This document shows positions 9,712 to 57,843 of a DNA stretch of 64,000 nucleotides, piece after piece. Below the pieces are notes generated by a model. That model saw only the letters and a list, made by a program, of their open reading frames with translations, was not told where the DNA came from and searched no databases. The DNA is taken from the NCBI GenBank assembly GCA_000004695.1, contig CM000155.2:1120001-1184000 (forward strand). Direction: 5' to 3'. Origin of the DNA: Dictyostelium discoideum (taxonomy: Eukaryota). Numbering within the stretch: position 1 is the first letter of the stretch; each line of letters opens with the position of its first letter. The position numbers and the translations under genes are program-made.

Positions 9712-9760
9712 TTTGATGAAAATCAAAATTTATAGCTGAAATACTATTAGAAATAGGGAG

Positions 9761-10423
9761 ATCGAAAAAAACAAACAACAACAACAATCTCTTTTTTTGA
9801 TTATTTCATTTTTCATATAAAAAAGACTTAAAAAACAAATAAATAAATAAATAAACTATTTTAAAAAGCCATCTTTTTACTTTATTGTAATTTATTATTT
9901 GTTTCGTTTTGAGAATTTTGCGTAGCAAAATTTTCAAAAAAAAAGCAAAAAATAATCAGATCGAAAAAAACAAACAACAACAACAATCTCTTTTTTTGAT
10001 TATTTCATTTTTCATATAAAAAAGACTTAAAAAACAAATAAATAAATAAATAAACTATTTTAAAAAGCCATCTTTTTACTTTATTGTAATTTATTATTTG
10101 TTTCGTTTTGAGAATTTTGCGTAGCAAAATTTTCAAAAAAAAAGCAAAAAATAATCAGATCGAAAAAAACAAACAACAACAACAATCTCTTTTTTTGATT
10201 ATTTCATTTTTCATATAAAAAAGACTTAAAAAAAAAATAAATAAATAAATAAACTTTTTTAAAAAGCCATCTTTTTACTTTATTGTAATTTATTATTTGT
10301 TTCGTTTTGAGAATTTTGCGTAGCAAAATTTTCAAAAAAAAAGCAAAAAATAATCAGATCGAAAAAAACAAACAACAACAACAATCTCTTTTTTTGATTA
10401 TTTCATTTTTCATATAAAAAAGA

Positions 10424-10480
<57 letters not shown>
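9761..10480 (+). repeat. Tandem repeat of ~198 bp (A-module-like unit), 3 full copies plus a ~70 bp partial copy ending in A~55.
   Basis: Units begin at 9761, 9959, 10157 and 10355 with (G/C)AGATCGAAAAAAACAAACAACAACAACAATCTC.... The copies are almost identical. Confidence 0.85.
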
Positions 10481-10484
<4 letters not shown>

Positions 10485-10559
10485 GGAACCAAGTTAATTA
10501 GAAAATTTCCAGATTTTTAACTTTTTAAAGAAAAATAAAAAAGATAGAAAGAAAATAAA

Positions 10560-11894
10560 ATGAAAATCACAAACAACACCACAAATATTAAGCAACACAA
10601 ATGCCTACAAAAAATAAGCGAAATTGTGGATAAAACTCAATTAAAAAAAAAACAATTCAAATACGTCATAAACATCAATCACGAACCAGACGATAAAATA
10701 AAAAAAGATTTAGAAAAAAGTTTGGACAAAAAAGATGTTTTAATCAAAAGTAATAATACATTCAAAATTCTCACAGACAGTATTAGTACAGTAATCTATT
10801 TTGTAAATATGTTTGATGCAGAATTAAAAGGACAATTTATAACCACTATAAGACCAAAAAATATGTATACAGATTTTGATTGGTATAAATCACTCACAGA
10901 AATAGAATGGGTAATAGAAAATGAAGGATGTAAACTAATTAAATCAGAAATTAAAGGCGAAACTCTAATTATCAAAACAGTGAAAAGAGTCGTAGAAGAA
11001 TTTGACACTATCATTGAACTAGACAATCTAACATTAATTGGACACTCCAACAAAGGATGGAGAGATCAAACCTCATTACCAGAAAATCAAGAAGAAAACA
11101 AAAATAAAAAACAATCAGATGAACAACAACCACAATCTACATCAGAACAAATACCAAAACAAGGAAAAAGAACAATCATTATCCCACCAATCACATCCTC
11201 ATCTAATGATAAAACATTTATGGCCCTAGATGATACAGCTCAAAAGGTAATAGAAGCATCACTAGAAAACGTAGATGAACTAACAAGAATAGAGAATGAG
11301 ATCAATACACAATCGATAAACAATCAAGAAATTAAAACAAAATCAGAAAAACCTATCGAACCACCATCTCCATACAATACACCAATAAAACAACACGGCG
11401 AAACAAAGGGACTAACAACGGAAGAAAAACTTAGAGAGGCAAATGATATCTTCGACTTCACCAGCCCAAACACTGATGCAATAAGAAAAATAGAATTCCC
11501 ACTTTCAATCCCTTCAAATCAATGGTTCTTCTCCTCTCCAATAAAACATATCATGAGTTTCAGCCCAACCTATGGTACACCATCGAAAATTATCGATTCA
11601 CCAAGTAAATTGTTAAACACACCAAAAAAGAAACAACAAGACAAAACAAACAAGACCAACAAAACACCAGTCAAACCAAAATTGGGTGAATATGGACAAA
11701 AAAGCATAAAAACAAAAATGGATGAAGATATAGACAACTTCAACAAGGAAATTCTAAAACAAATCAATAAATCAAAAAACCCCACAAACACACAAGACCA
11801 ACAACACAATGAACAAAGTAAAGATCAGTTAGAAGACAAAATAAACCAGAAACTTCAAAAGGTAGATAAAAATCTACCCCAAATAAAACTATAA
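10560..11894 (+). CDS. Retrotransposon ORF1 protein, 444 aa (~51 kDa), Ser/Lys/Gln-rich.
   Basis: Continuous ORF lying between the A-module repeats and an ORF2 start (IRIGVWNVQGSNT...ALLTETN, an apurinic/apyrimidinic (AP)-endonuclease N-terminus) at 11900-12190. Its size matches the ~51 kDa ORF1p reported for TRE5-A (established knowledge). Confidence 0.6.
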   Translation: MKITNNTTNIKQHKCLQKISEIVDKTQLKKKQFKYVININHEPDDKIKKDLEKSLDKKDVLIKSNNTFKILTDSISTVIYFVNMFDAELKGQFITTIRPKNMYTDFDWYKSLTEIEWVIENEGCKLIKSEIKGETLIIKTVKRVVEEFDTIIELDNLTLIGHSNKGWRDQTSLPENQEENKNKKQSDEQQPQSTSEQIPKQGKRTIIIPPITSSSNDKTFMALDDTAQKVIEASLENVDELTRIENEINTQSINNQEIKTKSEKPIEPPSPYNTPIKQHGETKGLTTEEKLREANDIFDFTSPNTDAIRKIEFPLSIPSNQWFFSSPIKHIMSFSPTYGTPSKIIDSPSKLLNTPKKKQQDKTNKTNKTPVKPKLGEYGQKSIKTKMDEDIDNFNKEILKQINKSKNPTNTQDQQHNEQSKDQLEDKINQKLQKVDKNLPQIKL

Positions 11895-11899
11895 AGAAA

Positions 11900-40194: not shown

Positions 40195-40758
40195 CTTTCT
40201 TCCCTACAGGCTAGTGCATTATTATGGTTAGACTTCAAAGTTGTTGTTTGGGGTACTTGGAATTCTGATCTTATGTGTAAAGTTTGTATGGGTCAAATTC
40301 CAATGGATTCAAACTATATTTTCTCACGTTACTATGGTGTTAGAGCAACTCCACCAACTTTAATTGGTGGTATTCTTCGTAATGAAACTGATGCTTGGTT
40401 CACACCATATTGTAATAACCCAGCTTCACCATACTATGTTAAACCAAAATGTGCATGTTACAACTCAACTTCACCATTGGTAATTAATCAAGTCTCTTCC
40501 TCTACTTGGTATGAAGGCCCAAACAACACCAAATACAGTCAATTCGATGGTAAAATCTTAAACAATGCTAATTACGCTGTTAACAATCCAACTTTCACAT
40601 CCTCACCATCAGGTGTTAAACCACGTACTATTTGGGGTTTAAAGAATGAAGGTGGTGATATTTGGTCATTATCATATTACCCAGTCATTAGCGGAAATGG
40701 TGGAGCTTTCCCATTTGGTTATATTAGCACTCAAGAAATTACCTTTAAAGCTAATTAA
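39633..40758 (+). CDS. Secreted CDA/TadA-fold zinc deaminase with a novel Cys-containing C-terminal domain, paralog 1. Exon 1 is 39633..40073 and exon 2 is 40210..40758. The intron donor reads TTAAGT instead of GTAAGT. As it stands the sequence encodes only a 154-aa deaminase-domain protein, ending with the stop at 40095-40097.
   Basis: Signal peptide MKLIISLLILICTLKLSFG. Helix-1 HEHRMAYILAISK. Zinc ligands HGEVAAINNC ...(28 aa)... YTTGEPCAMC, i.e. the [HC]-[AGV]-E ... PCxxC CMP/dCMP/tRNA-adenosine deaminase signature. Several N-glycosylation sequons are present. Exon 2 begins ASALLWLDFKVVVWG, the continuation of the PCxMCxxAllw helix. It is in frame only if the 136-nt TT...AG interval is removed. 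Confidence 0.6.
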
Positions 40759-40867
40759 TTATTTATTACCAATTAAAAAGTCTTACCGACTTTATATAAT
40801 CATAAAAAAAAAAAAAAAAAAAATTAATCCGAATAAATTAATAAAAAGTAATACCTTTTTGTTCACA

Positions 40868-41160
<293 letters not shown>

Positions 41161-41453
41161 TAATATCTTAACTTCACTATTTGGAGGTGAAATTTTACCA
41201 ATTGTTGGGGTAACATCTGGCTTAGTAAATGGAGCAATCGAAGGCTTTACAAAGGGGGTTTTTAATTGGTAATTTAATTTAATCTACAAATAACTAACCA
41301 ATTCTCATCAATATTTTGGACTGAAAAAAAAAAAAAAAAAGAAAATCTATTGAAATAGTAAAAATAATTGGAGAATTGGAATATTAAAAAAAGTAATATA
41401 AAAAGTATTTAATTAAATATAATAATAAAAAAAAAATCCGCATTTTTTATATT

Positions 41454-41990
41454 TTATTTAATATAAAGAGATATAATTAACATAAGTTTATGCAGTTGGT
41501 TGGAAAGCAATTTGGTCTTCACCATCGATGATGTAACCGAATGAGAAGGTTTGACCTGTTGGATGACTGGATACCATTGGAGAGCCCAAGTATTTTTGGT
41601 TTCATCAACAGCAAGACCCCAGATTGAGTTTGGACGGAGTGGAGATGAGGTGAAGGTTGGGTTGGTGACGGTTACTGAACCAGTGTTGGTGATGATACCA
41701 CCGAATTGAGAGACAGTTTTACCGTTTTCGAACCATGAGGAGTAAAGAGTTTGATCGATCTTTAATGGTGAAGTAGTGTTGGTACAGACACATTGTGGTT
41801 TAATGTAATAGATTGAAGTTGGTTTGCTACAGTATGAACCGAAACAGGCGTCAGCTTCAGTACGTAAGACACCACCGATAACTCTTGGTGGGCTAGCTCT
41901 TAAACCATAGTAACGACCCAAGATGTATGAGGAATCCATTGGGATGTTTGACATTCAGATTTTGCAAAGTAAATCACTGTTGAAGGTACC
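41454..41990 (-). pseudogene. Truncated, frameshifted 3' copy of the deaminase gene, C-terminal domain only.
   Basis: Identical to 56701-57240 apart from a 1-bp deletion (cctgttgg here versus cctggttgg there) that shifts the frame (...WYPVIQQVKPSHS). The homology breaks at 41990. The shared 3' flank is AAAATCCGCATT...ATAAGTTTATGCAGTTGG. Confidence 0.8.
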
Positions 41991-43269
41991 CCAGACAATG
42001 TGCTGAATGGTCTATTCGTGCAAACCGGGTAATAAAAGGTATTTTTTTTAAAAAAAAAAATGGACTACATGGGCTGAACTGTTTATTAGTGCCAACCGGG
42101 CTGATACAAGGTTTTTTTTTTTTTAAAAAAAAATAAATTGACTGCAAAGATTGACTGATAAAAGGTTTTTTTTTTAAAATGGGCAAAAATAAGGTTTTAA
42201 ATTTTTGATACGGACTGCACGGGCTAATCGAGATAAAAAAAAAAATATCACACTGACTACAAATTATTTTTTTAAAATAAAAAAGGACTACACAGGCTTA
42301 TAAAAAGGTTTTTTTTTAAAAAATTAAAAAAAAAAAAAAATAAAAACAATAAAAAAACGATAAAAACATTACAATTTTTTAATTTTTTTATTTTTTCTTT
42401 TTTAAATGTATTTAAAAAATAAAATATATTTAATAAGAAAATATGAATATATTGTTTGAGACTTTGCAAAAAAAAAAAAAAACCTGAATGTATGTAGTAT
42501 TTTTTATTATTAATTTTTATTTTTTTTTATTTTTATTTTCTGGAAAATTAAAATAAAAAATCACTTTGCATATTATTTTAAGTTTTGTATTATTAATAAA
42601 TAAATAAATTATTTTACATTCTTATTTAGGAGAAAACCAATAAAATAAAAAATAATAAAATGAAATAATAAATAACGTTAATTTTTTTTTTTTTAGGTAA
42701 TGTGTGGTAAATTTTGAAAAAAAAATAAAATTTAATTAAAGTAATAACTAACAATTTTACATTTATATTTAGGAGTTTAAATCAAAAAAAATGAAATTAA
42801 AAATAATCAAATTAATAATATTAATAAATAAATAAAAAAAAAAAAAAAAAAAAAAATAAAATTACCGCATTATTTCATTTTTATTATTTTTTATTGAATA
42901 CTTTTTTTTTAAAAATAGATGGTTTTTTTAAAAATATTTAAGCCCACGTATATCCTAAAAAAACCTTTAAATAAATAACCGTTTCAAAAAAAGACGGTTA
43001 TTTATTTAAATATCTAAAAAAATAATTTTGTAAGGGCTGTACTCAACCCTTTAAAGTGCTGTACGGGCTATGCCCAAAATTAAAAACTTTGAGCACAACC
43101 CGCACAGCACTCTTAAGTGTTGCGCACAGTCCTTACAATGTTTTTACAATTTTGTTTGGGCTGTTGGGGCTTATAGTGCCAAAGTTAAAATTTTTCTCAG
43201 TGGTCGTGTATCTTTTTATATATATATGTTTTACAATTGAACTATACCAGATTATTTAATTTATCTAAT

Positions 43270-44220
43270 TGTTAGCTGGTTGTAAAGAAATACCTTCTAA
43301 TAATTCTTCATTTTCATCGGTATAATCGACCAAGTCCAAACCAATTTTATTACTCTTGTCTTTATGAATTTGTTTTTTACATGAACGTTCAGTTCTGATA
43401 GCTTCAAAATACTTTGATAATATTAGTACTGCTAATGATGCTTTATTTTTATAGGTGGAACTAAAAACATTCTTTACAATACTAAGTTTGCTCTAAGGTG
43501 TAACATTTCTTGAATTCCCAGAATCTTTTTTTAATTTTAAACCTTGCTTTAAAGGTTGATTTTGAATTTGTTTACATGTTGCAGTGATACCATGATTTGA
43601 TAATAATTTATCTCTAATAGTTGATACACTTGGATCATCTTCAAATAATTTTTTTAAATGGAGTTGATTGGTTTCATCCCATAATTGATCACCAATAAAT
43701 TTAAAATTTGGAAGTTTAGTTAAATTATAGTTTCTTCCATCAACCAAAGTTGTGAAGAATTTTGATTAGCAACATTTTCCATCATTTGTGGTCTGTTAGC
43801 ATATGCAAAGAGAGCAGTTACAAAAAGATTTTCTTGATGCATGTCCCATGCTTGGCCAACCTTAGTACCATTATTAAATTTAACCTCTTGCAAGATTGGA
43901 ATTTCTTTCTTGGCACCTTCTATTCTGTCAACAAAACTATTAACTTGAGTACTATTAATGTTGATACCAGAGCACTTCATTTCAACAGAGGTATGAATAA
44001 TTTCCACCATGCATGACGAAGGCTTTAACAAAGGCTTGGATTGATGGCAAACTCCAGAGATATGCATCTTTGCCAGAGTAAACAAGTTGGCAGATACTTT
44101 GATAGAATGAGAACATTCGGTTATCGAAATTTAACTTTCCTTCAGGTTGTTGAATACCTTCACACAAATTATTAGGAATTAAACTAATATTTGGATTATC
44201 AAAAGTACTAAAATCAACAA
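43270..44220 (-). pseudogene. Degenerate copy (multiple frameshifts) of the 345-aa gene at 50735-51772.
   Basis: ORF fragments 43493..43747, 43720..44085 and 43982..44167 each align to successive parts of the 50735-51772 protein (KLPNFKFIGDQLWDETNQLHLK..., GTKVGQAWD.HQENLFVTALFAYANRPQM, CEGIQQPEGK). A T~110 homopolymer lies upstream at 44222-44350. Confidence 0.75.
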
Positions 44221-44257
44221 AATGAACATTTTTTTTTTTTTTTGAAACATATTTATT

Positions 44258-44352
<95 letters not shown>

Positions 44353-44565
44353 TTTACATGTATGTTTATTTATTTATTTATATTTATTTATTATTATATT
44401 CATTTGAAACCTTTTATTCATTATATTTTTTTTTTTAATAAATTATAGATATTATATATATAGAATACTATGGGTAAAAGGAAATAATAATGTTTGTTTG
44501 TAGTTGAAAATATTAAAATTAAAAATAAAAAAAAAAATATAACAAAAAAGATTTTATTTTAATAA

Positions 44566-44606
<41 letters not shown>

Positions 44607-45562
44607 CTTAAAATTTTTTTTTAAAAATTGTGTTTTTATATTTTCCAAACATACTTCATTTAAGGGGGGTCAGATTTACAATCATTTTAAAGGAATGGGG
44701 TTATAAATTTTCTTAAAATAATATTTTAAAATATCTTTGAAGTTAAACATATTTATGTATTTATATAATGATACGATTAGTTTATCAAAATGTGTTTGGT
44801 TGTTTATTATTATAATTGGTTGTTTATTATTATTATTATTTTTTTTAATTAATTACTGCATTTCTTTATTAGATTTAATAATAGTTTAGAAATAATAAAA
44901 TAATATATAAAAAATAAAAAAAAATAATATTAGTTGAAATAATAAAATTTTATATGGTATAATAAATAATTAAATAGTTTGAAATAATATATTAGTAAAA
45001 TTAAATAGTAAAATTAAAATAATAATTTGATACATATATTATTTTATAGATAAATAGTTCAATCATTGAAATAATAACAACAACAACAATAATAATAATA
45101 ATAATTATATATATATCATATTAATAATTAAAACTAGTTTGAAATTAATGGTAATTTAAAGGTTGATATAAATAAATTCAAAAAAATTTGTATGTATTAT
45201 TTTAGTTACTACCTACTACTTTTAAACATGTTGTATTAACATTATATTCAAATTTTTTATTACAATTCCTATAGATACAACTGTCTTTGATAAAAACATT
45301 TCACCTCAAATTAGTAAGTATTTTATTTTTATTATAGTATAGGTAACACTAGCGTTATTCTACAACTTTTTATATATTAACCTTGATAATAAATAATTCT
45401 TTAATCCGATTACTATAAAGATGAAATTTTAGATCTATTTGAATTTGGTATGTTTTAAATTTTATTATTATTATTTATAATTGCAATTATTAATTCTCAA
45501 CATTGGTGTATTAATATAAATTCAATAATTATTTAGATACTACAAAATCATCATATGAAGAT

Positions 45563-46070
45563 GTGATTGAAGAATACAGTAAATTTGAAAATGATTCTCT
45601 TGGATCATTTGAATATCTTGATTACAGTGATTTACGTTTATTATCTAAAAGAAAGTGGAATAATAAAGAAGCTTTAATCATAGGTAATGGTAAAAGTAAT
45701 TATAAAACAACTGTACAAATAAAAGGTGATTTGTTAGATAAAGGTTATTTTAGAACTGAACTTGCTATTGATACATAGTTTGATAGAAATAAGTATTAAT
45801 AAATAAAATGGTTAAAAATTTTAAAAGTACTCAAGAAACCATCACCAGTCATTTCAAGAAATTGGAGTCCAGATGAACAAAAAGCATTAATGGTTGAAGT
45901 TTCTACACTTGGTAATAAATCTGAAATCAACTGGTTTTTCATTTCTCAACAACTCTTTTTAAAAGGTATTAGTAGAAATGCAAGAGAATGTCAAAGAAAA
46001 CATGAATCAATCCAATATGTTGGTCTTTCAGGTAATCCAAAAGCTAAATTTAAAGGAACTTTTGATTAGT
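45563..46070 (+). pseudogene. Disrupted copy of the Myb/SANT-like gene at 53788-54303.
   Basis: Same N-terminal sequence (IEEYSKFENDSLGSFE). A stop follows ELAIDT, and there are frameshifts through the SANT-like region. Confidence 0.7.
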
Positions 46071-46359
46071 TTGTCATATATTTTAAATAAATAACATCTT
46101 CAATATAAAAAATTTCCAATAATTTTATTTTCTTTTTTTTTTGTTATTGATAGTACTTATAACAAAAAATGAATGATAAATAATTAAATTCTAAAAATAA
46201 AATTTTTGATTTAAAAAATAAAATAAAAAATTCAAAAAATAGAATGATTACACGGTGTTTATGATAATAATTTTTTTTTTAATTTTAAAAATTTTTTTAT
46301 TTTAATTTTTAATTTTTTTTTTTATTTTTTTTACCAATTCCAGTCTGTAAACAACATTC

Positions 46360-46696
46360 ATGTATCGATCGTTGTCTACTGGTCCATGTCGATCATGTAA
46401 GTTAAAAACAAGTCCATATGTCGTTGTGGAAAGACCATTGAAAATAGACAATGTGGTTCAACAAGATATGACAAAGCATTTACTTGTGATGTTTGCAAAA
46501 TTCATGAATGTTGTCCAAGCACACCAACACATGATGAAGCAGGTAACCAAGATTGTATAATTTATTCTACATTTTCTTCACTCGATCCAAATTCACAAGA
46601 ATATGCAAATAAATTACAAATTGAGCCATTACAGTCTATATCAATAGTATCACCAAAAATTATTAAAAAAATTGAACCAATCCTTATAAAGATTGT

Positions 46697-46785
<89 letters not shown>

Positions 46786-46790
46786 TTTAA
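46360..46790 (+). CDS. Cys-rich, poly-Ser-tailed ORF fragment(s). The exon structure is unresolved.
   Basis: One frame reads SICRCGKTIENRQCGSTRYDKAFTCDVCKIHECCPSTPTHDEAGNQDCIIYSTFSSLDPNSQEYANKLQIEPLQSISIVSPKIIKKIEPILIKIV(S)n. The same coding block recurs at 55562-55894. A different frame, ...CIDRCLLVHVDHVS, precedes a GTAAGT. Confidence 0.3.
46690..46786. repeat. (AGT)n microsatellite, about 32 units (poly-Ser in frame).
   Basis: A perfect agt periodicity is visible. Confidence 0.9.
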
Positions 46791-47970
46791 TAAATAATAA
46801 AAAATGAATTAATAATAAATTGTAAAGATAAAAAATTAAATAAATTTAATAATAATGAAATTAGAGTAGTATGTTTGCATTCTAATGAATCGATGTATTG
46901 TTGATATGTTAATCTTGATAATGTATAGGTTTTCAAAATTGTCATCCTTGCTATTGTGATCGCTTGACTTTTCCATTTGCTAAGATTATCTTTGATTGCT
47001 GTCAATTTTGAATTTAAACCTATTTTGGTGAAATTGAGACCTAAATATCTTTCTGGTGCATCGCTTAATTTGAATGGTAACCTTGGAGGTATGTCCCCAA
47101 TTACCATCAGGAAATCCCAAATACTTAATTCGGTTACTTATTTTAAATATGGAGTTAATATTTTGAAAAACTCTATAAATTGGATCATCTGGTAGTTGTG
47201 TTGAAGCAGTAGTGGTATTTGCAGTTGGTTTGTTTAAATTAAAAGTTGTTGGAGTATTTGAGGTTTGACCAACTGAATTATGGTTAGCAGAATTAGTATT
47301 GGTGGTGTTACAGGTAGCCATTATTTGATTAAAAATTTAAAATAATTATAAAAAATAATTTTACAATAAAATGAAAAATTTAATTTGTTATTAATATATT
47401 ATTATATTATTGTATATTAAAAAAAGATTGATTATTATTTTTTTTCAGAACCAATTAAAAAAGTACAAATCAGGTGGTAGTATTAACCAATTTGTATTTC
47501 ATCAGATGAAGGAGAATCATCAAACAAATATGATAATTATGATGATTATGAATCAGTCCTTAATCACCAATTTTACTAAAAAAGATGTTCCAACACAATA
47601 CCAACATTATTTGATAATACTAATTCAAGCAAATGCCCTGGTGTTTTTTTTCCAATACTTCAAATTTAAAACTTTATCGAAAATAATATTCGTTAAATTA
47701 TTAAATTAAGTAATATTACCATTTGAGCCTTAAAAAACACAATAGGTATTATCATCTTTGAAAAGTAAAAACATCCCTGCACAAACTGGGATATACAATT
47801 TAAAAAAAAAAAAACATTTTAGCTTTTTCTTGTAATTAATTTATTTTGTTATTTTGTATTATGTTTTGTATAAAAAGAAATTCCAAAAATAAAAAAGTTA
47901 TTCCAAAAAAAAAAATCGGCGTTGTTGTTTATATTTTATTTAATATAAAGAGATATAATTAATTATAAGT

Positions 47971-48477
47971 TTATGCAGTTGGTTGGAAAGCAATTTGGTC
48001 TTCACCGTCGATGATGTAACCGAATGAGAAAGTTTGACCTGGTTGGATGACTGGATACCATTGGAGAGCCCAAGTATTTTTGGTTTCATCAACAGCAAGA
48101 CCCCAGATTGAGTTTGGACGGAGTGGAGATGAGGTGAAGATTGGGTTGGTGACGGTTACTGAACCAGTGTTGGTGATGATACCACCGAATTGAGAGACAG
48201 TTTTACCGTTTTCAAACCATGAGGAGTAACGAGTTTGATCAATCTTTAATGGTGAAGTAGTGTTGGTACAGACACATTGTGGTTTAATGTAATAGATTGA
48301 AGTTGGTTTGCTACAGTATGAACCGAACCAGGCGTCAGCTTCAGTACGTAAAACACCACCGATAACTCTTGGTGGGCTAGCTCTTAAACCATAGTAACGA
48401 CCAAAGATGTATGAGGAATCCATTGGGATGTTTGACATACAGATTTTGCAAAGTAAATCACTGTTGAAGGTACCCAT
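47971..48477 (-). pseudogene. Second truncated 3' copy of the deaminase gene (C-terminal domain, frame intact, no deaminase exon).
   Basis: Near-identical to 56701-57210. The homology breaks at about 48476 (gaaggtaccca|tcttataag), and Trp is replaced by an ATG at the breakpoint. More than 170 bp of shared 3' flank (47800-47970 versus 56530-56700). Confidence 0.8.
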
Positions 48478-49191
48478 CTTATAAGACCAATTAATTCCAA
48501 TGTGGCTTCATCTGTTGCAAATCGATTTTCATTTATTAACTCTTATAATAATCTATCAAAAATTAATAAAATTTCTTTTTTTTTAACATATTTTAAAATT
48601 ATTTATTAATTTTTAATAAATTTTATTATTAGTATTATTTTTTTAATATTAAAATTATAAATAAATGATTAATAAATTATTATTATTCACTAAATAATAT
48701 TATTTTTTGATTAATAAATAATTTCTATAATAAATAAGGAATATATTATTTGAAAAAAAATAAAAATTCTTATATTTTAAAATTTTTTATTTACACCCAT
48801 TATTTTTTATCATTTTATTATAGTTTTTAATAATATATAATATCATATTGTAACTCAAAAATATCTTGTTTATACTAATATTTATTTAATTTTATGAAAT
48901 GTTCTAAATAGAACATTTAAAAATAACTATTAATATTGAATTAATAATTCAATATTAATTATTGCTAACTTAATTTATTTTAATAAATTGTTTCATTTTA
49001 TATAATAAACTCACTAAACACAACTAAATAATAATTCAAAAATAAATAATAATAATTTAGAATATAGTTTTGTTTCAACATTTTATTATAACACATACAA
49101 TTCAGAAAATAATAATAATTTATTTTATTGTTTTGTTTAAAGGGGTTTTCTCCCGTTGTAATTAAATTTAATTAATTTTAAATTTAATTTT

Positions 49192-49233
<42 letters not shown>

Positions 49234-49414
49234 TTAATTTGAATTTCACAAAAGTTTTCATAATAGATATTAGATACCAGATATTAAAAATGTCACACAA
49301 AATCACCATATAAAATAATAATATAAATTTAAAAATAATTTAATTAAAAAGAAAATAATAATTAATTAGAATAAAATTAAAATAATATAATATTGTAGTT
49401 TAAATTGGATCTAA

Positions 49415-49542
49415 CCCTATCGGCTGAGGTTGGAGTAGTTAACAGATTTGAGTCTGCTCAAATCTGAGGACTATAAAAGGAAACTAGGTTTCTAATTCAA
49501 CCTCAGTAATAAATATATACAAATAATAAAAACGCGATAGGG
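49415..49542 (+). ncRNA. Candidate structured RNA or MITE-like nested inverted repeat (~128 nt), copy 1.
   Basis: Outer stem CCCTATCG/CGATAGGG. Inner stem CTGAGGTTG/CAACCTCAG. Internal hairpin CAGATTTGAG-TCTGCT-CTCAAATCTG and GAAAC-TAG-GTTTC. Duplicated at 54876-55000. Confidence 0.35.
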
Positions 49543-49701
49543 CTACGGTCATTAATTAAATACATGTGTACATTTATTTCTTAAATAATTAATCATTTAT
49601 TTTAATAATAAAATAAATAAATTGAATAATAATAAAACAATAAATAAAATTAATAATAATAAATAATCAAATTTTATTAAATAATTTATTAAAAAAAAAG
49701 A

Positions 49702-50070
49702 ATGTCAACTAATAATAATAATAACAACAATAATAATAATGAAGATATTGATAATGATGAATTGCAACAACAGGATAATGAGGAACAACAACAACAACCA
49801 CAGGTATCAACTTTCAATGAACAGCAACGTCAAATAAGGGAACAGCAACAGGTAATAGATAAACAAAATCAACTTCTTCAACAACACATTCAATTAATAA
49901 ATCAACAATCTCAACAACAATTAAATAACCATTCGACACCACCATCATCACCCAACATTACAACACCAATAACTTCAGCAGCAATAACCAACACAATAAA
50001 GAAATCATTAGGAAAAATTAACACTGATGACACCGACCACCAGTTGTTACACATATATGATAAACTATAG
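49702..50070 (+). CDS. Small poly-N/poly-Q protein (122 aa).
   Basis: MSTNNNNNNNNNNEDIDNDELQQQDNEEQQQQPQVSTFNEQQRQIREQQQVIDKQNQLLQQHIQLINQQSQQQLNNHSTPPSSPNITTPITSAAITNTIKKSLGKINTDDTDHQLLHIYDKL. A rearranged second copy lies at 55163-55688. Confidence 0.45.
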   Translation: MSTNNNNNNNNNNEDIDNDELQQQDNEEQQQQPQVSTFNEQQRQIREQQQVIDKQNQLLQQHIQLINQQSQQQLNNHSTPPSSPNITTPITSAAITNTIKKSLGKINTDDTDHQLLHIYDKL

Positions 50071-50734
50071 TTTTATGTTTTAAAAAATGAGAAATTACAA
50101 TAGTATTATTTCCTATTAATTGTTGTATATTATTAAATTATAGGTTTATGTTTTAAAAAATGAGAAATTACAATAGTATAATTTCTCAAAATATGGTAGA
50201 TAAATAAATTTTTTATAGTTTAATGACAAATTAATATTCAATTTTAATTAAAATATTATTAGATTTTATCAATTTTTAATTTATATTAAAATATATTTTT
50301 ATTATGGCCAGATTCTTTTTTATTATTTTATGATAATTTAATAATAAAGTGTGATTAATTATTAATTAGAAATTAATATTAGTTTGTTATAAATTTTATT
50401 AAATTATAATATCATTTCTTAAAATATAAGTTTTTGCGGGTTTAATTTCTCACAAAATAGTAAAATTTCTTAGTTTTTTTTCTCTGGTGAAATAAAATAA
50501 TATAAAATAAAATAAAATAAAATAAAACAAAATAAAACAAAACAAAACAAAACAATTTGAACCCATTTCATCTTCTAAATACACGAAAATTAAAATAAAA
50601 AACACATGTGTTGCAACACTTTTTTTTTTTATTACTTTTTTTATTATTTTTTTTATTATTTTTTTTTTATGATCTTTTTATATATATATTTTACAATTTT
50701 ACTATTCTATAATACCAGATTATTTTATTTAGAT

Positions 50735-51769
50735 CTAATTGCTAGCTGGTTGTAAAGAAATACCATCTAATAATTCTTCTTCATTTTCATCGGTATAATC
50801 GACCAAGTCCAAACCAATTTTAATACTCTTGTCTTTATTAATTTGTTTTTTACATGAACGTTCAGTTCTGATAGCTTCGAAATACTTTGATAATATTAGT
50901 ACTGCTAATGATGCTTTATTTTTATAGGTGGAACTAAAAACATTCTTTACAATACTAAGTTCTTCTTTGCTCCAAGAGGTAACATTTCTTGAATAAGTAG
51001 AAACTTTTTTTAATTTTAAACCTTGCTTTAAAAGTTGACTTTGAATTTGTTTACTTGTTACAGTGATACCATGATTTGATAATAATTTATCTCTAATAGT
51101 TGATACACTTGGATCATCTTCAAATAATGTTTTTAAATGGAGTTGATTGGTTTCATCCCATAATTGATCACCAATAAATTTAAAATTAGGAAGTTTAGTT
51201 AAATTATAGTTTCTTCCATCAACCAAATTTGTGAAGAATTTTGGACTTAAATTATAACCATTTAAATGAAAAATGTTGCTAATCATTTGTGGTCTGTTAG
51301 CATATGCAAAGAGAGCAGTTACAAAAAGATTTTCTTGATGCTCGTCCCATGCTTGGCCAACCTTAGTACCATTATTAAATTTAACCTCTTGCAAGATTGT
51401 TGGAATCTCTATCTTGGCACCTTCTATTCTGTAAACAAAACTTTTAACTTGAGAACCATTAACGTTGATACCAGAGCACTTCATTTCAACAGAGGTATGA
51501 GTTTTATTTCCACCATGCATGACGAAAGCTCTAACAAAAGCTTGGATTGATGGCAAAGTCCAGAGATATGCATCTTTGCCAGAGTAAACAAGTTGGCAGA
51601 TACTTTGATAGAATGAGAACATTCGGTTATCGAAAAAAAATAATACCTTTCCTTCAGGTTGTTGAATACCTTCACACAAATTATTAGGAATTAAACTAAT
51701 ATTTGGATTATCCAAAGTACTAAAATCAACAACATGAACATTTTTTTTTGTTTTTGAAACCTTTTTACT

Positions 51770-51772
<3 letters not shown>
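50735..51772 (-). CDS. Hypothetical 345-aa protein with a C-terminal Myb/SANT-like segment.
   Basis: Intact ORF. The C-terminus reads TSWSKEELSIVKNVFSSTYKNKASLAVLILSKYFEAIRTERSCKKQI (W-x...-RxxxxCxxQ SANT-like pattern). The degenerate paralog is at 43270-44220. A poly-T lies upstream at 51775-51820. Confidence 0.5.
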
Positions 51773-51821
<49 letters not shown>

Positions 51822-52607
51822 TTAATAAATTATTGATATTATATATATATAATATTATGGGTATAGTTGAAAATATGAAAATTAAAAATAAAAAAAAAAT
51901 ATAACAAAAAAGATTTTATTTTAATAACAAAAATAAAAAAAAAAAAAAAAAAAAAAAAATCTTAAAATTTTTTTTTAAAAATTGTGTTTTTATATTTTCT
52001 AAACATACTTCATTTAAGGGGGTCAGATTTACAATCATTTTAAAGAGATGGGGGGTTATAAATTTTCTTAAAATAATATTTTAAAATATCTTTGAAGTTA
52101 AACATATTTTAAAATAATATTTTAAAATATCTTTGAAGTTAAACATATTTATGTATTTATATAAATATATATAATGATACGATTAGTTTATCAAAATGTG
52201 TTTGGTTGTTTATTATTATAATTGGTTGTTTATTATTATTATTTTTTTTTTTTTTAATTAATTACTGCATTTCTTTATTATTAGATTTAATAATAGTTTA
52301 GAAATAATAAAATAATATATAAAAAATAAAAAAAAATAATATTAGTTTGAAATAATAAAATTTTATATGGTATAATAAATAATTAAATAGTTTAAAATAA
52401 TATTAGTAAAATTAAATAGTAAAATTAAAATAATAATTTGATACATATATTATTTTATAGATAAATAGTTCAATCATTGAAATAATAACAACAACAACAA
52501 CAACAATAATAATAATAATTATATATATATCATATTAATAATTAAAGCTAGTTTGATAAATTATTATATATTAGCATATTAAATAAAATTAATAATAATT
52601 TATAAAA

Positions 52608-53354
52608 ATGGATGAACCTTCAACAGATAAAATTTTAATTGGTGCTCAAATCATTACAACAGTTATAACATTGTTCACTGGTGTTTTTGAATTTATTATT
52701 GCTGCAAAAAGCAAAATGAAAAGAATGAAAAGTGAACAAATGTTTTCAGTAAATCAAGATGGATTAATACATATTATTAAATCACTATTACCAGGTCGTA
52801 ATATAATTTTCATCAGCAATGCACCAACCAGCACCACAGATCCATCATTCAACAGCCAGACAATGAAAAACTTTTTAAAAGTAATATTTAGATTACTACC
52901 GTTTTTCATTGGTGCTGTCTTTATACATTTAAATATAATACCGTTTCATCATTTAATTATTTTTACTGAAAATGGTAAATGGTACTTTGATAGTATACAA
53001 GAAGAATTAATACCTATTGTAAAAGAAAGATTAAAGCAAATAATGTCATCTCAACCTGATGTCATATTTGCATGTGGTGCTGTGGTAAGGGATATATTTT
53101 ATATGTATCTTGAAGAAGGTTCAATTGAAATGGTTGGTAATAATATATTCGTGTATATAAATAAAGATGGTACGAAAAAAACTATTATTTGTTTTGTTCC
53201 ACACTTTTGTACTCGTAAAGATCATTGGAAGTTTATTGCTCAAGGATTATTATTTATTCATACTCATTTCAAATTATCAACATTCAATACAAATTATTTT
53301 GAAAAAAACAAACCAGAAATTAATTTTAAAGATATTAGATATATAGTTCTTTAA
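52608..53354 (+). CDS. Hypothetical 248-aa protein with an N-terminal TM helix. It is encoded inside an ~0.8 kb copy-specific insertion flanked by a 9-bp direct repeat.
   Basis: Intact ORF. 52557-53364 is absent from the paralogous block at 45130-45145. CTAGTTTGA occurs at 52548-52556 and 53356-53364. Confidence 0.45.
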   Translation: MDEPSTDKILIGAQIITTVITLFTGVFEFIIAAKSKMKRMKSEQMFSVNQDGLIHIIKSLLPGRNIIFISNAPTSTTDPSFNSQTMKNFLKVIFRLLPFFIGAVFIHLNIIPFHHLIIFTENGKWYFDSIQEELIPIVKERLKQIMSSQPDVIFACGAVVRDIFYMYLEEGSIEMVGNNIFVYINKDGTKKTIICFVPHFCTRKDHWKFIAQGLLFIHTHFKLSTFNTNYFEKNKPEINFKDIRYIVL

Positions 53355-53787
53355 ACTAGTTTGAAATTAATGGTAATTTAAAGGTTGATATAAATAAATT
53401 CAAAAAAATTTGTATGTATTATTATTTTAGTTACTACCTACTACTTTTAAACATGTTGTATTAACATTATATTCAAATTTTTTATTACAATTCCTATAGA
53501 TACAACTGTCTCTGACAAAAACATTTCACCTCAAAGTAGTAAGTATTTTATTTTTATTATAGTATAGGTAACGCTAGCGTTATTCTACAACTTTTTATAT
53601 ATTAACCTTGATAATAAATAATTCTTTAATCCGATTACTATAAAGATGAAATTTTAGATCTATTTGAATTTGGTATGTTTTAAATTTTATTATTATTATT
53701 TATAATTGCAATTATTAATTCTCAACATTGGTGTATTAATATAAATTCAATAATTATTTAGATACTACAAAATCATCATATGAAGAT

Positions 53788-54303
53788 GTGATTGAAGAAT
53801 ACAGTAAATTTGAAAATGATTCTCTTGGATCATTTGAAAATCCTGATTACAGTGGTTTCCATTTATTATCTAAAAGAAAGTGGAATAATAAAGAAGCTTT
53901 AATCGTAGGTATTGGTAAAAGTAATAATAAAACAACTGTACAAATAAAAGGTGATTTGTTAGATAAAGGTTATTTTAGAACTGAACTTGCTATTGATACA
54001 TACTTTGATAGAAATAAGGTATTAATAAATAAAATGGTTAAAAATTTTAAAAGTACTCAAGAAATTATAAAACCATCACCAGTCATTTCAGGAAATTGGA
54101 GTCTAGATGAACAAAAAGCATTAATGGTTGAAGTTTCTACACTTGGTAATAAATCTGAAATCAACTGGTTTTTCATTTCTAAACAACTCTTTTTAAAAGG
54201 TATTAGTAGAAATGCAAGAGAATGTCAAAGAAAACATGAATCAATCCAATATGTTGGTCTTTCAGGTAATCCAAAAGGTAAATTTAAAAGAACTTTTGAT
54301 TAG
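53788..54303 (+). CDS. Myb/SANT-domain protein, one exon of a multi-exon gene. The displayed ORF starts at an alternative GTG start.
   Basis: GNWSLDEQKALMVEVSTLGNKSEINWFFISKQLFLKGISRNARECQRKHESIQ is a SANT/Myb repeat. Upstream, DEILDLFEF is followed by a GTATGT donor at about 53675 and a tatttag acceptor at about 53762, and it splices in frame (DTTKSSYEDVIEEY...). No in-frame ATG lies immediately upstream. Confidence 0.55.
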   Translation: MIEEYSKFENDSLGSFENPDYSGFHLLSKRKWNNKEALIVGIGKSNNKTTVQIKGDLLDKGYFRTELAIDTYFDRNKVLINKMVKNFKSTQEIIKPSPVISGNWSLDEQKALMVEVSTLGNKSEINWFFISKQLFLKGISRNARECQRKHESIQYVGLSGNPKGKFKRTFD

Positions 54304-54641
54304 TTTGTCATATATAAATAAATAACATATTCAATATAAAAAATTTCCAATAATTTTATTTTCTTTTTTTTTTTTTATTGATAGTACTTTTAACAAAAAA
54401 TGAATGTAAATAATTAAATTGTAAAAATATAATTTTTGATTTAAAAAATAAAATAAAAAATTCAAAAAATAAAATAATTACACCGGGTGTCTAATTTGAA
54501 TGTTACTATTAATAATTTTTTTTTTAATTTTAAAAATATTTTTATTTTAATTTTTTATTTTTTTTTTTATTTTTTTTACCAATTCCAGTCTGTAAACAAA
54601 ATCATTAAATACTTAATTAATTTTAAATTAAATTTAATTTT

Positions 54642-54686
<45 letters not shown>

Positions 54687-54875
54687 TTTGAATTTCACAA
54701 AAGTTTTCATAATAGATATTAGATACCAGATATTAAAAATGTCACACAAAATCACCAAATTTATATATTTTATAAAATAATAATATAAATTTAAAAATAA
54801 TTTAATTAAAAAGAAATAATAATTAATTAGAATAAAATTAAAATAATATAATATTGTAGTTTAAATTGGATCTAA

Positions 54876-55000
54876 CCCTATCGGCTGAGGTTGGAGTAGT
54901 TAACAGATTTGAGCGAACTCAAATCTGAGGACTATAAAAAGAAACTAGGTTTCTAATTCAACCTCAGTAATAAATATATACAAATAAAAACGCGATAGGG
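54876..55000 (+). ncRNA. Candidate structured RNA or MITE-like nested inverted repeat, copy 2.
   Basis: Same stems as 49415-49542. The internal hairpin loop differs (CAGATTTGAG-CGAAC-TCAAATCTG) while the pairing is preserved. Confidence 0.35.
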
Positions 55001-55162
55001 CTAGGGTCATCAATTAAATATATGTGTACATTTATTTCTTAAATAATTAATCATTTATTTTAATAATAATAAAATAAATAAATTCAATAATAATAAAACA
55101 ATAAATTAAATTAATAATAATAATAAATAACCAAATTTTATTAAAAAAATTTATTTTAAAAG

Positions 55163-55688
55163 AATGTCAACTAATAATAATAATAACAACAATAATAATA
55201 ATGAAGATATTGATAATGATGAATTGCAACAACAGGATAATGAGGAACAACAACAACAACAACCACAGGTATCAACATTCAATGAACAGCAACGTCAAAT
55301 AAGGGACAGCAGCAGGTACTAGATAAACATTACCACAAGTAAATACATTGTCATATCTTGTTGAACCACACCACATTGTCTATTTTCAGTGGTCTTTCCA
55401 CAACGACAGATGGACTTGTTTTTAACTTACATGATCCACATGGACCAGTAGACAACGATCGTGTAACAACTGGTGGTCGGTGTCATCAGTGTTAGTTTTT
55501 CCTAATGATTTCTTTATTGTGTTGGTTATTGCTGCTGAAGTTATTGGTGTTGTAATGTTGGGTGATGGTGGTGGTGTCGAATGGTTATTTAATTGTTGTT
55601 GGGATTGTTGATTTATTAGTTGAATGTGTTGTTGAAGAAGTTGACTTTGTTTGCAAAATTCATGAATGTTGTCCAAGCACACCAACAC
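55163..55688. pseudogene. Second copy of the poly-Q gene, broken by an internal inversion.
   Basis: The 5' half is on the + strand (MSTNNNNNNNNEDIDNDELQQQDNEEQQQQQPQVSTFNEQQRQIRDSSRY*). The 3' half (LLQQHIQLINQQSQQQLNNHSTPPPSPNITTP...TDDTDHQLLH) is encoded on the minus strand (55422..55688) and fused to DRCLLVHVDHVS, which is homologous to 46390-46430. Confidence 0.7.
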
Positions 55689-55894
55689 ATGATGAAGCAG
55701 GTAACCAAGATTGTATAATTTATACTAGATTTTCTTCACTCGATCTAAATTCACAAGAATATGCAAATAAATTACAAATTGAGCCATTACAGTCTATATC
55801 AATAGTATCACCAAAAACTATTAAAAAAATTGAACCAATCCTTATAAAGATTGTAAGTAGTAGTAGTAATAGTAGTAGTAGTAGTAGTATTTAA

Positions 55895-56012
55895 TAAATA
55901 ATTAAAAATGAATTAATTCATTAATTATAATTAATTATAATTAATTCATTAATTATAATTAATTATAATTAATTCATTAATTATAATTAATTATAATTAA
56001 TTATTTATATAT
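55895..56012. repeat. Tandem repeat of ~29 bp (ttaattataattaattataattaattcat), about 3.5 copies.
   Basis: A direct periodicity is visible. Confidence 0.8.
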
Positions 56013-56700
56013 ATAATATATAAAGAAAACAAACAATTAAATATTTAATTGATTCAATTCAATTATTTTAATTCAAATGGAACTATCAAATGAAATATAG
56101 AGAAAAGAAAGCATTAAATAAAATTTTTTAAGAAATCATCTTATCAAATACCATCACTAAGATTAAGTGAAACTGTTGGAATAGGTACATCAGGTAATAG
56201 TTCAAGTAATAGTATCAACAATAACAACAGTAGTAATGGCCAAAATTATGCATCCATTAAGTCCAATTCGTTGTGGTGGTATTAATAATCAAAAACAACC
56301 AAAATTAGAAGTTTTATCACCTGCTTTATTATTTAGAGAATTTTAGAAATTTAGATTCAATTTTAATATACCTCTCAAATTAAAATCATTTTAATCAATA
56401 TGATCCATCCATGTTTTATACAACTAATAATATTAATAATGAATCTACTAAAAGACACAATCAACAAAATTAAAATCATTGACTGTTTTTAGTAGATAAA
56501 ATCATTTTTAAAAGATTGTTGGTGAAAAAAAAAAAAAACATTTTAGCTTTTTCTTGTGATTAATTAATTTATTTTGTTATTTTGTATTATGTTTTGTATA
56601 TACAAAAAGAAATTCCAAAAATAAAAAAGTTATTAAAAAAAAAAATCCGCATTGTTGCTTATATTTTATTTAATATAAAGAGATATAATTAATTATAAGT

Positions 56701-57335
56701 TTATGCAGTTGGTTGGAAAGCAATTTGGTCTTCACCGTCGATGATGTAACCGAATGAGAAAGTTTGACCTGGTTGGATGACTGGATACCATTGGAGAGCC
56801 CAAGTATTTTTGGTTTCATCAACAGCAAGACCCCAGATTGAGTTTGGACGGAGTGGAGATGAGGTGAAGGTTGGGTTGGTGACGGTTACTGAACCAGTGT
56901 TGGTGATGATACCACCGAATTGGGAGACAGTTTTACCGTTTTCAAACCATGAGGAGTAACGAGTTTGATCGATCTTTAATGGTGAAGTAGTGTTGGTACA
57001 GACACATTGTGGTTTGATGTAATAGATTGAAGTTGGTTTGCTACAGTATGAACCGAACCAGGCGTCAGCTTCAGTACGTAAGACACCACCGATAACTCTT
57101 GGTGGGCTAGCTCTTAAACCATAGTAACGGCCAAAGATGTATGAGGAATCCATTGGGATGTTTGACATACAGATTTTGCAAAGTAAATCACTGTTGAAGG
57201 TACCCCAGACAATGGTTTTGAAGTCAGCCCACAAAAGAGCAGCTGAGCACATGGCGCATGGCTCTATAGGAGTTTGTTAGTTGTTCAATTGATTGATCAC
57301 ATGATCATTCATTATTATTTTTTAAAAAAATAAAA

Positions 57336-57395
<60 letters not shown>

Positions 57396-57843
57396 AGTAT
57401 TTGTAGATTAAAACATTATTATTACATATTAATTACTTACCTCCAGAAGTGTAAAGAGTGTAGTTGGTGAAAGAGGTGATACCGTGTAAAGCAGTACAGT
57501 TGTTGATGGCAACGATTTCACCATGTGAAATGATATTTGGTTTACCAGTGTTGACACCAAGACACATTAAAGTACCATTTTGGTGGTAGATTGAAGCAAC
57601 GAATTTCTTATTTTGTTGTTTGGCGATGGCAAGGACGTAAGCCATACGTTCTTCGTGCATACCTAATTCTTGTGGATCGAGATCAGCTGGAGTGAGAACT
57701 TGAGCATTGTCGGTTGGTTTCCAGCTTACTTTTTGAGTGGCTGTACATTCACCGATGGTTGAAATGTTTGGATTGAATTCATCGCATGCAAATGATAATG
57801 CAATAAATGCGAGTAAAATAGTTAATAATAAAGCAATCTTCAT
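56701..57843 (-). CDS. Secreted CDA/TadA-fold zinc deaminase with a Cys-containing C-terminal domain, paralog 2 (intact). It has 2 exons: 57843..57441 and 57263..56701 (321 aa).
   Basis: Signal peptide MKIALLLTILLAFIALSFA. HEERMAYVLAIAK. HGEIVAINNC...YTLYTSGG|EPCAMCSAALLWADFKTIVWG spans the intron, with a GTAAGT donor in phase 1 and a cctatag acceptor. The C-terminal domain is NSDLLCKICMSNIPMDSSYIFGRYYGLRASPP...CSKPTSIYYIKPQCVCTNTTSP...WYPVIQPGQTFSFGYIIDGEDQIAFQPTA. Confidence 0.8.

Follow-up and report, generated by a model that had tools for sequence, protein, structure and literature searches.

How did some 16 kb of duplicated, inverted and decaying gene copies come to lie between two neighbouring genes in the amoeba Dictyostelium discoideum, and what brought a similar set of sequences to a related gene on another chromosome? 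We addressed these questions for a 64,000-nucleotide stretch of the AX4 genome (GenBank assembly GCA_000004695.1, contig CM000155.2, positions 1,120,001 to 1,184,000 of the forward strand), hereafter the window, whose own numbering is used throughout. The mosaic lies on chromosome 6 and holds the genes DDB_G0292084-DDB_G0292096. An original prediction, made from the sequence alone, had described it as a mosaic of segmental duplications, inversions and decaying gene copies, typical of a rapidly evolving accessory or subtelomeric-like region. Here we report that the block is a decaying tandem duplication, in which two copies of a cassette carrying the gene mybR (Myb-like protein R) each end in a 5'-truncated copy of the last exon of a secreted deaminase gene, D1, together with a third partial piece and transposon debris, and that it is a lineage-specific structural variant of laboratory strains derived from isolate NC4 (AX4 and the inferred AX2). 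A related cassette stands beside a further deaminase paralogue, D3, on another chromosome. We favour, with a probability of roughly 60%, a history in which ectopic recombination of one deaminase paralogue with another relocated the cassette, after which came amplification by unequal crossing-over and then decay.

A tandem duplication between two deaminase genes

The block is placed exactly between two convergent paralogues that encode secreted proteins with deaminase and CBM49 domains. This setting had gone unremarked in the original prediction, as had the truncated local deaminase exon that ends each unit and the cassette beside the paralogue on another chromosome. D1 (DDB_G0292096, identified by exact-sequence look-up) is an intact minus-strand gene at 56701-57843, with exons at 57843-57441 and 57263-56701, and its product has a signal-peptide-like N-terminus, a CMP/dCMP-deaminase domain (dCMP_cyt_deam_1) and a CBM49 domain according to Pfam. 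D2, on the plus strand at 39633-40758, forms the left boundary of the block; it has the same two Pfam domains, corresponds to a 326-aa AX2 gene model and is ~70% identical to D1 in nucleotides, and its orthologues stand directly beside D1 in wild strains.

Repeats were mapped by self-BLAST of the whole window, with which a separate repeat search agrees, and every predicted repeat pair was recovered at 85-98% identity with E-values from 1e-47 to 0, well outside what chance would give, so that the mosaic of segmental duplications, inversion and decaying gene copies is correct as described. The deaminase 3' region forms three direct pairs, 41427-42000 with 56636-57214 (97.1%), 47802-48475 with 56526-57205 (97.2%) and 41427-41991 with 47906-48475 (96.7%). 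Also direct are the pairs formed by the 345-aa gene and its twin (50672-51823 with 43210-44311, 90.6%, 54 gap positions), an AT-rich spacer (44412-45147 with 51799-52563, 85%), the Myb region (45102-46357 with 53321-54602, 94.4%), the Cys-rich/poly-Ser block, which recurs as predicted (46490-46731 with 55648-55889, 97.9%), and the poly-Q region (49161-49865 with 54604-55329, 92.2%). Two pairs are inverted, 49861-50052 with 55652-55461 (97.4%) and 46366-46494 with 55461-55325 (90.5%). The block is a tandem segmental duplication, its copies non-allelic and within one genome: matches measure 1.1-1.3 kb at 90.6-94.4% and 0.57-0.68 kb at 97%, for a paired total of ~5.5 kb per copy. Counting substitutions alone in these alignments, copies have diverged by ~1.3-5%, most segments near 2-3%.

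Read from D1, that is from right to left in the window, the block begins with ~70 bp of native flank past the D1 stop codon and a poly-T run, which is the junction between the native flank and cassette copy B. This copy holds the D1-proximal end u5/z (55890-56635, of which 55956-56153 is shared with the cassette on the other chromosome and 56526-56635 is repeated after the second truncated exon), the Cys-rich/poly-Ser segment Q (55648-55889, plus strand), an inverted stretch of segments Y and P (55325-55652), the 5' part of the poly-Q segment, X (54604-55329, plus strand), mybR (52608-54303, plus strand), the AT-rich spacer F (51799-52563) and segment G (50672-51823, minus strand) with the intact 345-aa orphan open reading frame (ORF) DDB_G0292094 (50735-51772). 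Beyond a segment u4 follow the partial third piece Y-X (49161-50070, plus strand), with an intact 122-aa poly-Q ORF at 49702-50070, then u3 and the truncated D1 last exon Dt-2 (47802-48475, minus strand), annotated as DDB_G0292090 with a 168-aa ORF and succeeded by the 70-bp flank, poly-T run and 110 bp of z as at D1. The unique segment u2 (46732-47801), which contains retrotransposon debris, leads to cassette copy A, with Q and P (46366-46731, plus strand), a mybR remnant M (45102-46357, plus strand), F (44412-45147) and G', a frameshifted pseudogene copy of the 345-aa ORF (43210-44311, minus strand). The dispersed repeat or transposon-like element u1 (42001-43209) is cut off at its junction with the second truncated exon, Dt-1 (41427-42000, minus strand; DDB_G0292084, a 166-aa ORF with a 1-bp deletion), after which come native D1 flank, a short repeat R (41157-41437, by self-BLAST also upstream of D2 at 38788-39083), a microsatellite and D2. 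Segments were delimited by self-BLAST, together with ORFs for G', translation for the mybR remnant, look-up for G and the repeat search for the inversion, and mybR by database gene models. The cassette, 5-7 kb in size, is composed of the 345-aa orphan ORF, the AT-rich spacer, mybR and the poly-Q/Cys-rich segment.

The prediction that the deaminase 3' region occurs three times holds, but a shared flank of more than 170 bp in all three does not, since only two copies share ~170 bp. D1 and Dt-2 keep only the first ~70 bp of native flank, followed by the poly-T run and a common different sequence, whereas the copy at 41.4 kb has ~60-75 bp of common flank and then the native D1 flank of wild strains (~100 bp after Dt-1 are the same as after wild-strain D1). 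DDB_G0292084 and DDB_G0292090 are truncated duplicates of DDB_G0292096 and not independent carbohydrate-binding genes. The ATG of DDB_G0292090 arises at the u3/Dt-2 junction (48470-48480, ...ataagATGggtacc...), and its ORF would give a CBM49-only protein with no signal peptide.

The twin of the 345-aa gene in copy A is broken into ORFs of 84 and 121 aa, and the Myb twin is interrupted by stop codons and a frameshift, as had been foreseen for both; the second copies of DDB_G0292094 and mybR are pseudogenes. The Myb/SANT ORF at 53788-54303, which had been taken for a gene of its own, is the last exon of the multi-exon mybR (52608-54303). Exon 1 of mybR, a 248-aa ORF at 52608-53354, is missing from copy A through a ~800-bp deletion at a 9-12-bp microhomology, AA[AG]CTAGTTTG, a motif that stands on both sides in copy B; because the exon is present in the cassette found on the other chromosome in assembly GCA_054859385.1 (ACTFIR), copy B represents the ancestral state. 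The ACTFIR cassette also runs ~100 bp from the region downstream of mybR into X, therefore the M-X order is ancestral and X-Y was lost between M and P in copy A. The recurrence of the poly-Q gene with its 3' half inverted and fused to sequence like that at 46390-46430 had been paired correctly, but the actual event is one 328-bp inversion, 55325-55652, which would span two adjacent segments of an original order X-Y-P-Q. Re-inverting it restores no single poly-Q-to-Cys-rich ORF. The X-Y piece at 49.2-50.1 kb diverges from copy B as much as copy A does and may be the remnant of a third unit.

A protein search returned no homologue of the 345-aa protein beyond itself and, without being exhaustive, found mybR in two lineages only. 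The latter name comes from the source annotation, and the Myb domain of MybR scores 18.5 bits against PF00249 (cut-off 24.4) and 19.5 bits against PF13837 (cut-off 27), both under the gathering score. Single- and two-intron GT-AG models of mybR totalling 322 bp were all closed in frame, and the database models were used instead. A uracil-DNA-glycosylase-like fold of the 248-aa N-terminal domain, a motif-based guess that would pair suggestively with the deaminase, is unsupported, with no Pfam hit at E<=10, no PDB sequence hit and an AlphaFold mean predicted local distance difference test score of 48. mybR is a dispensable, fast-evolving gene, and most sequenced relatives seem to be without it.

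The window has a G+C content of 17-30% and very long homopolymers, and in a region so AT-rich and repetitive the duplications might have come from collapse or expansion during assembly of the Sanger-era AX4 reference. Such mis-assembly is refuted by contig JBTAPE010000034.1 of GCA_054883475.1, an independent de novo Nanopore and Illumina assembly, which also encodes the 345-aa protein and is collinear with window 40657-61816, reproducing the whole structure and its order with 3 mismatches over 21 kb, the remaining differences being gap positions; moreover, assembly errors do not give rise to the 1-5% substitutions and the structural changes that set the copies apart. The assemblies of PRJNA1300491 were built de novo from Nanopore and Illumina reads and include the laboratory strain AX2-214 (PMC12745789). 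From its near-identity to AX4 we infer that GCA_054883475.1 is the AX2 assembly. The wild isolate NC4 is the ancestor of both AX2 and AX4, so the structure that they share belongs to the NC4 lineage, and its internal divergence of 1-5% means that it long predates laboratory culture.

The suggestion of a subtelomeric-like region fails, as the locus is chromosome-internal, 1.16-1.25 Mb into contigs of 2.4-2.6 Mb in two assemblies and ~270 kb from the AX2 contig end, rather than within tens of kb of a chromosome end or beside telomere-associated repeats (contig ends are themselves unproven as telomeres). Its neighbours are conserved syntenic single-copy genes, a ComC-like gene on one side and a COMM-domain gene and a squalene/phytoene-synthase-family gene on the other.

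D2 itself presents a splicing puzzle. At its exon 1/intron junction (40040-40215) no in-frame GT-AG intron was found that joins both ORFs with the PCxxC zinc motif kept; with the obvious donors, either a stop codon arises or the second Cys is lost, and the AX2 annotation still calls the 326-aa product. The cause could lie in non-canonical splicing, in faulty annotation or in a gene that is defective.

The cassette at two deaminase loci

Seven assemblies were examined, at the D1-D2 locus (locus 1) and the D3 locus (locus 2) only. In three assemblies of wild or cryptic members of the discoideum clade, GCA_054859385.1 (ACTFIR), GCA_054859355.1 (ACTFIW) and GCA_054859205.1 (ACTFIY, 'cf. discoideum'), both flanks of locus 1 are syntenic and the block is absent between D1 and D2, the order being ComC-like, D1, D2, COMM-domain and squalene/phytoene-synthase-family gene with a D1-D2 gap of 0.7-2 kb. 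BLAST of one wild locus (L004) aligned its positions 4132-11241 with window 63836-56635, plus the deaminase copies, and 11485-21140 with window 41206-31522. The extra DNA in AX4 amounts to ~15.2 kb, at 42001-57214 or equivalently 41427-56635, with a 574-bp stretch of D1 sequence directly repeated at its two ends. The block is hence an accessory region, present or absent among strains between flanks that stay syntenic, and the expectation of a rapidly evolving one is borne out by its absence from these three assemblies, by the two-lineage distribution of mybR and by the 345-aa ORF without homologue. Among the genomes examined, the NC4 lineage alone has the cassette at locus 1.

At locus 2, D3 of the wild isolate ACTFIR encodes a 322-aa deaminase. 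It is flanked by genes for a urea transporter and for a small secreted protein, whose AX4 orthologues (DDB_G0277263 and DDB_G0277261) are on chromosome 2. The ACTFIR order is PIG-H, urea transporter, full D3, cassette, truncated deaminase, retrotransposon and tRNA-Arg, and its cassette consists of u5, Q, mybR (463 aa, 75% amino acid identity), F and G with an inversion, ended by a 425-bp truncated deaminase exon. The inversion, ~410 bp and internal to the 345-aa ORF region (positions 8147-8562 of the ACTFIR locus sequence L003 versus window 51118-51527), is relative to both AX4 copies, so the 345-aa ORF lacks conservation even in an otherwise intact cassette. At its right end the cassette consists of ~640 bp copied from locus 1, from the sequence directly preceding D2, with identities of 97% and 88-93% to the native copies, and the whole is bracketed by 188-bp direct repeats (R, 94%) from the region upstream of D2; no copy of R was found at the empty chromosome-2 site or beside full-length D1 in AX4, where searches gave AT-rich noise only. 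The D3 site is empty of the cassette in AX2, ACTFIW and D. citrinum, while in ACTFIY, a cryptic sister species, G, mybR exon 1, F and the Myb exon persist as scrambled pieces. The cassette in ACTFIR and its remnants in ACTFIY indicate that it is old at the D3 locus.

The truncation points of the three truncated exons, Dt-1, Dt-2 and the ACTFIR copy, fall within 17 bp of one another (window equivalents 57222, 57214 and 57205), and at the ACTFIR junction the motif TT[CT]AAAACC is common to the preceding R-like sequence and the deaminase exon. Each truncated exon resembles the deaminase gene at its own locus: Dt-2 and Dt-1 differ from AX4 D1 by 1.2% and 2.0%, and both by 1.4-2.6% from wild D1s, with synonymous to non-synonymous differences of 5:1 and 6:3 between AX4 D1 and the truncated copies, and the ACTFIR copy differs by 1.5% from ACTFIR D3 and by 12-13% from every D1. 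At ~1-2% from the local full gene, the truncated copies were either made from it or homogenised by local gene conversion.

Transposon sequences lie close to the cassette at both loci, and a transposon might have carried it as passive cargo, through 3' transduction by a tRNA-targeted non-long-terminal-repeat (non-LTR) retrotransposon or u1-type capture, the link to deaminases being coincidental. In ACTFIR, a full-length non-LTR retrotransposon (L003 10356-13618), with a 285-aa ORF belonging to a 14-member cluster and an RVT_1 ORF, abuts the cassette and ends 44 bp upstream of a tRNA-Arg(ACG) gene (13662-13735), head-to-head. In AX4, a protein search identified a reverse-transcriptase fragment of a non-LTR retrotransposon inside u2 (46787-47321, minus strand, two frames), at the boundary of copy A and Dt-2 and more than 33 kb from any tRNA gene; it has 10 matches among 1.8 billion representative proteins, the best of which carry RVT_1 and one also an AP-endonuclease domain (Exo_endo_phos). 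Element u1, with (A)nCCTTTTATCAGCCCGTGCAGTCC(T)n arrays, a GC-richer palindromic end module and no ORF, abuts Dt-1, and its family recurs beside D1 in GCA_054859205.1 (L008 11170-12390, ~100 bp downstream of D1) and at L010 1904-2101. The ACTFIY copy of u1 is situated near the position of the AX4 insertion junction.

These associations notwithstanding, we consider transport by a transposon very unlikely. The AX4 fragment and the ACTFIR element are without similarity (tblastx returned low-complexity matches only, and their identity as one element was rejected), mybR has retained its introns, and the cassette ends showed no poly-A tail, terminal inverted repeats or target-site duplications. The repeat search of the window detected no long inverted repeats there, short ones and target-site duplications not being judgeable in 78% A+T DNA, and Pfam and protein searches of the cassette ORFs gave no transposase, integrase, recombinase or reverse-transcriptase domain. 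With mybR found in two lineages only and the 345-aa ORF without homologue, the cassette does not qualify as a multi-copy autonomous element with its own enzyme, and the reverse-transcriptase fragment is debris outside its core. Forty-four bp upstream of a tRNA gene is the classic position of tRNA-targeted TRE5-type elements, so ordinary tRNA targeting, with an independent insertion of the ACTFIR retrotransposon, is the simplest explanation. Finally, two landings beside deaminase paralogues, each with a truncated deaminase exon, would be unlikely by chance.

Proposed transfer, amplification and loss

Divergence was estimated as synonymous substitutions per site (dS) and as the non-synonymous to synonymous ratio (omega) by the Nei-Gojobori method, which is crude in an AT-rich genome. 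AX4 D1 differs from Dt-2 and Dt-1 by dS of 0.045 and 0.055 and from wild D1 by 0.074-0.093, and D1 from D3 by 0.26-0.6, with D1 and D3 flanks unalignable. Between AX4 and ACTFIR, mybR exon 1 has dS 0.16 and omega 0.34 and the last exon (53788-54303 versus L003) dS 0.05 and omega 2.45, with 49 non-synonymous versus 5 synonymous differences, which could reflect positive selection or relaxed constraint. The pooled mybR dS is ~0.11, and non-coding cassette DNA is 82-87% identical across the two chromosomes. Set against the D1-D3 values and their unalignable flanks, these figures make the cassette ancestor much younger than the D1/D3 split, and the cassette was therefore moved or copied between the loci.

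Independent signs of recombination between the loci come from D3 itself. Among 93 diagnostic sites that tell D1 from D3, a contiguous D1-type run covers ~25 in AX2 D3 and ~19 in ACTFIW D3, with D3-type sites around both; the runs occupy the intron and first half of exon 2 (L006 6500-7605 on AX2 chromosome 2, and L007 10001-11130). They are textbook tracts of interlocus gene conversion, and because of them AX4 D3 lies 7.7% from D1, versus 13% for ACTFIR D3. The sequence from upstream of D2 that ends the ACTFIR cassette is a further sign of exchange between the two loci.

The favoured history would run in three steps. Homology between deaminase paralogues would first have primed the ectopic recombination or repair that brought the cassette to D1, whether through gene conversion by synthesis-dependent strand annealing, through replicative template switching or through an excised circle that integrated by a Campbell-type single crossover, leaving intact D1 on one side and a 5'-truncated deaminase exon on the other. 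Unequal exchange between the direct repeats of the full and truncated deaminase would then have produced a tandem array of two, possibly three, units. Redundant copies would finally have decayed, through frameshifts in the 345-aa ORF, the ~800-bp deletion of mybR exon 1, the X-Y deletion in copy A, the 328-bp inversion in copy B and insertion of repeat elements. The second and third steps can be read directly from the repeat structure, but the specific route of amplification, exchange between the full and truncated deaminase, is probable rather than observed; the present order is the expected product of such exchange in a single-cassette ancestor. For the first step, insertion by homology agrees with the position of the insert at both loci, between a complete and a truncated copy of the target in direct orientation, and with the recombination between loci described above.

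Several observations weigh against this history. The ACTFIR cassette begins 1.1 kb downstream of D3 and not inside it, a poor fit to simple single-crossover integration, and the sequence that adjoins each of the three truncated copies upstream is a different one, so that a single inherited breakpoint needs secondary junction changes. We found no donor-derived tract: the three AX4 deaminase copies hold no D3-type patch, although the differences are too few to decide, and the AX4 block, searched for a sign of transfer direction, contains no DNA of the locus-2 flank, tRNA-Arg included. The direction and mechanism of transfer are accordingly inferred and not shown. In addition, the sample of seven assemblies at two loci leaves further cassette copies elsewhere uncounted, and the protein search that limits mybR to two lineages missed AX2 gene models for the pseudogene twins.

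No relocation would be needed if the full gene, cassette and truncated exon had existed at both loci, or as alternative haplotypes, in the discoideum-clade ancestor and had repeatedly been lost by recombination between full and truncated deaminase, AX4 keeping the cassette at locus 1 and CR116C-like strains at locus 2. Direct repeats of 0.4-0.6 kb flank each unit, and deletion between them would regenerate the exact wild 'empty' allele; remnants at locus 2 in two divergent lineages mean that the cassette is old there, and the ACTFIR cassette contains locus-1-derived sequence. We nevertheless hold an old polymorphism of this kind to be unlikely, as three of the four lineages examined are without the cassette at locus 1 and its copies differ far less than D1 and D3 do (mybR dS ~0.11 and 82-87% non-coding identity, versus dS 0.26-0.6 and unalignable flanks), so that it cannot date from the D1/D3 duplication. 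A long-lived polymorphism with repeated loss may hold for the polarity but not for an origin at that duplication.

Movement between paralogues followed by local amplification, the history that we favour, can be compared with three known kinds of rearrangement. A structural-variant hotspot of non-allelic homologous recombination (NAHR), tgrBC, was described in the same genome set (PMC12745789). NAHR segmental duplications and copy-number variants such as tgrBC and the AX3/AX4 chromosome-2 duplication resemble the present block in that tandem units of 1 kb or more, 85-98% identical, are bounded by direct repeats and vary in presence among strains, with pseudogenes among the extra copies, small inversions, and junctions that contain transposon debris; they differ in that the boundary repeat here is a truncated exon of the neighbouring gene family and not a transposon, and in that the cargo is also present on a second chromosome next to a further paralogue.

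Campbell-type single-crossover ('ends-in') integration of circular DNA is the route of insertional plasmid integration in yeast and Dictyostelium, and bacterial genomic islands integrate into the 3' ends of tRNA genes. Both leave the insert between one intact and one truncated 3' part of the target in direct orientation, preserve the intact gene and allow tandem multimers, as here, but no recombinase, att-like core or circular intermediate is known for the cassette, and the ACTFIR insert starts 1.1 kb downstream; the likeness concerns the product and not a demonstrated mechanism. Fork stalling and template switching or microhomology-mediated break-induced replication would share the junction microhomologies (AA[AG]CTAGTTTG at the exon-1 deletion and TT[CT]AAAACC at the ACTFIR junction), the small inversions (328 bp in copy B, ~410 bp in ACTFIR) and the insertion of a distant template together with local duplication. 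The mosaic features also fit later independent small events, and no single complex event is demonstrable.

The cassette might go further and behave as a non-autonomous mobile unit that hitchhikes on homology, using host homologous recombination to hop between deaminase loci on different chromosomes. We regard this as rather doubtful. If true, the cassette would carry or regenerate a last-exon fragment of the deaminase-CBM49 gene, and each hop would leave the target gene intact next to a truncated direct repeat, open to later amplification or clean excision, a eukaryotic analogue of genomic islands that target tRNA gene 3' ends. As a weaker corollary, the linkage of deaminase and mybR may be functional rather than merely mechanistic.

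A search of the available library found no paper mentioning the gene identifiers of the region. The block is a structural variant of an ordinary kind with an unusually clear history, and it offers a compact, datable example of inter-chromosomal exchange between paralogues in an amoeba whose homologous recombination is very efficient. What passed between the loci includes conversion tracts, a copied promoter region and, probably, the gene cassette as a whole, after which direct repeats drive amplification and loss. The locus is a second well-resolved structural hotspot beside tgrBC and a possible natural assay for ectopic recombination.

Other repeats in the window

The microsatellite next to D2, (AAT/TAT)n of ~330 bp at 40860-41200, was recognised by repeat search and belongs to the native D1-D2 intergenic region; the poly-Y and poly-N ORFs listed there are spurious. 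Elsewhere in the window, three tRNA-Ser(UGA) genes (4940-5021, plus strand; 9630-9711 and 13095-13176, minus strand) each lie in a repeat of 108-158 bp, 96-100% identical. One of them adjoins a tandem repeat at 9751-10452 (period ~199 bp, ~3.5 copies, 92-98% identity), and a related piece lies at 10426-10749 versus 12192-12479 (88.6%). A second and older local duplication of ~1.9 kb at 75-83%, unrelated to the mosaic, occupies a region of 18% GC (14416-16058 versus 16875-18459, and 16075-16292 versus 18614-18840). At the D. citrinum D3 locus, 0.5 kb between D3 and a CfaA-like gene (L009 13710-14218) matches window 7155-7658, near the tRNA-Ser cluster, at 94%, and is probably a conserved repeat or mobile element.

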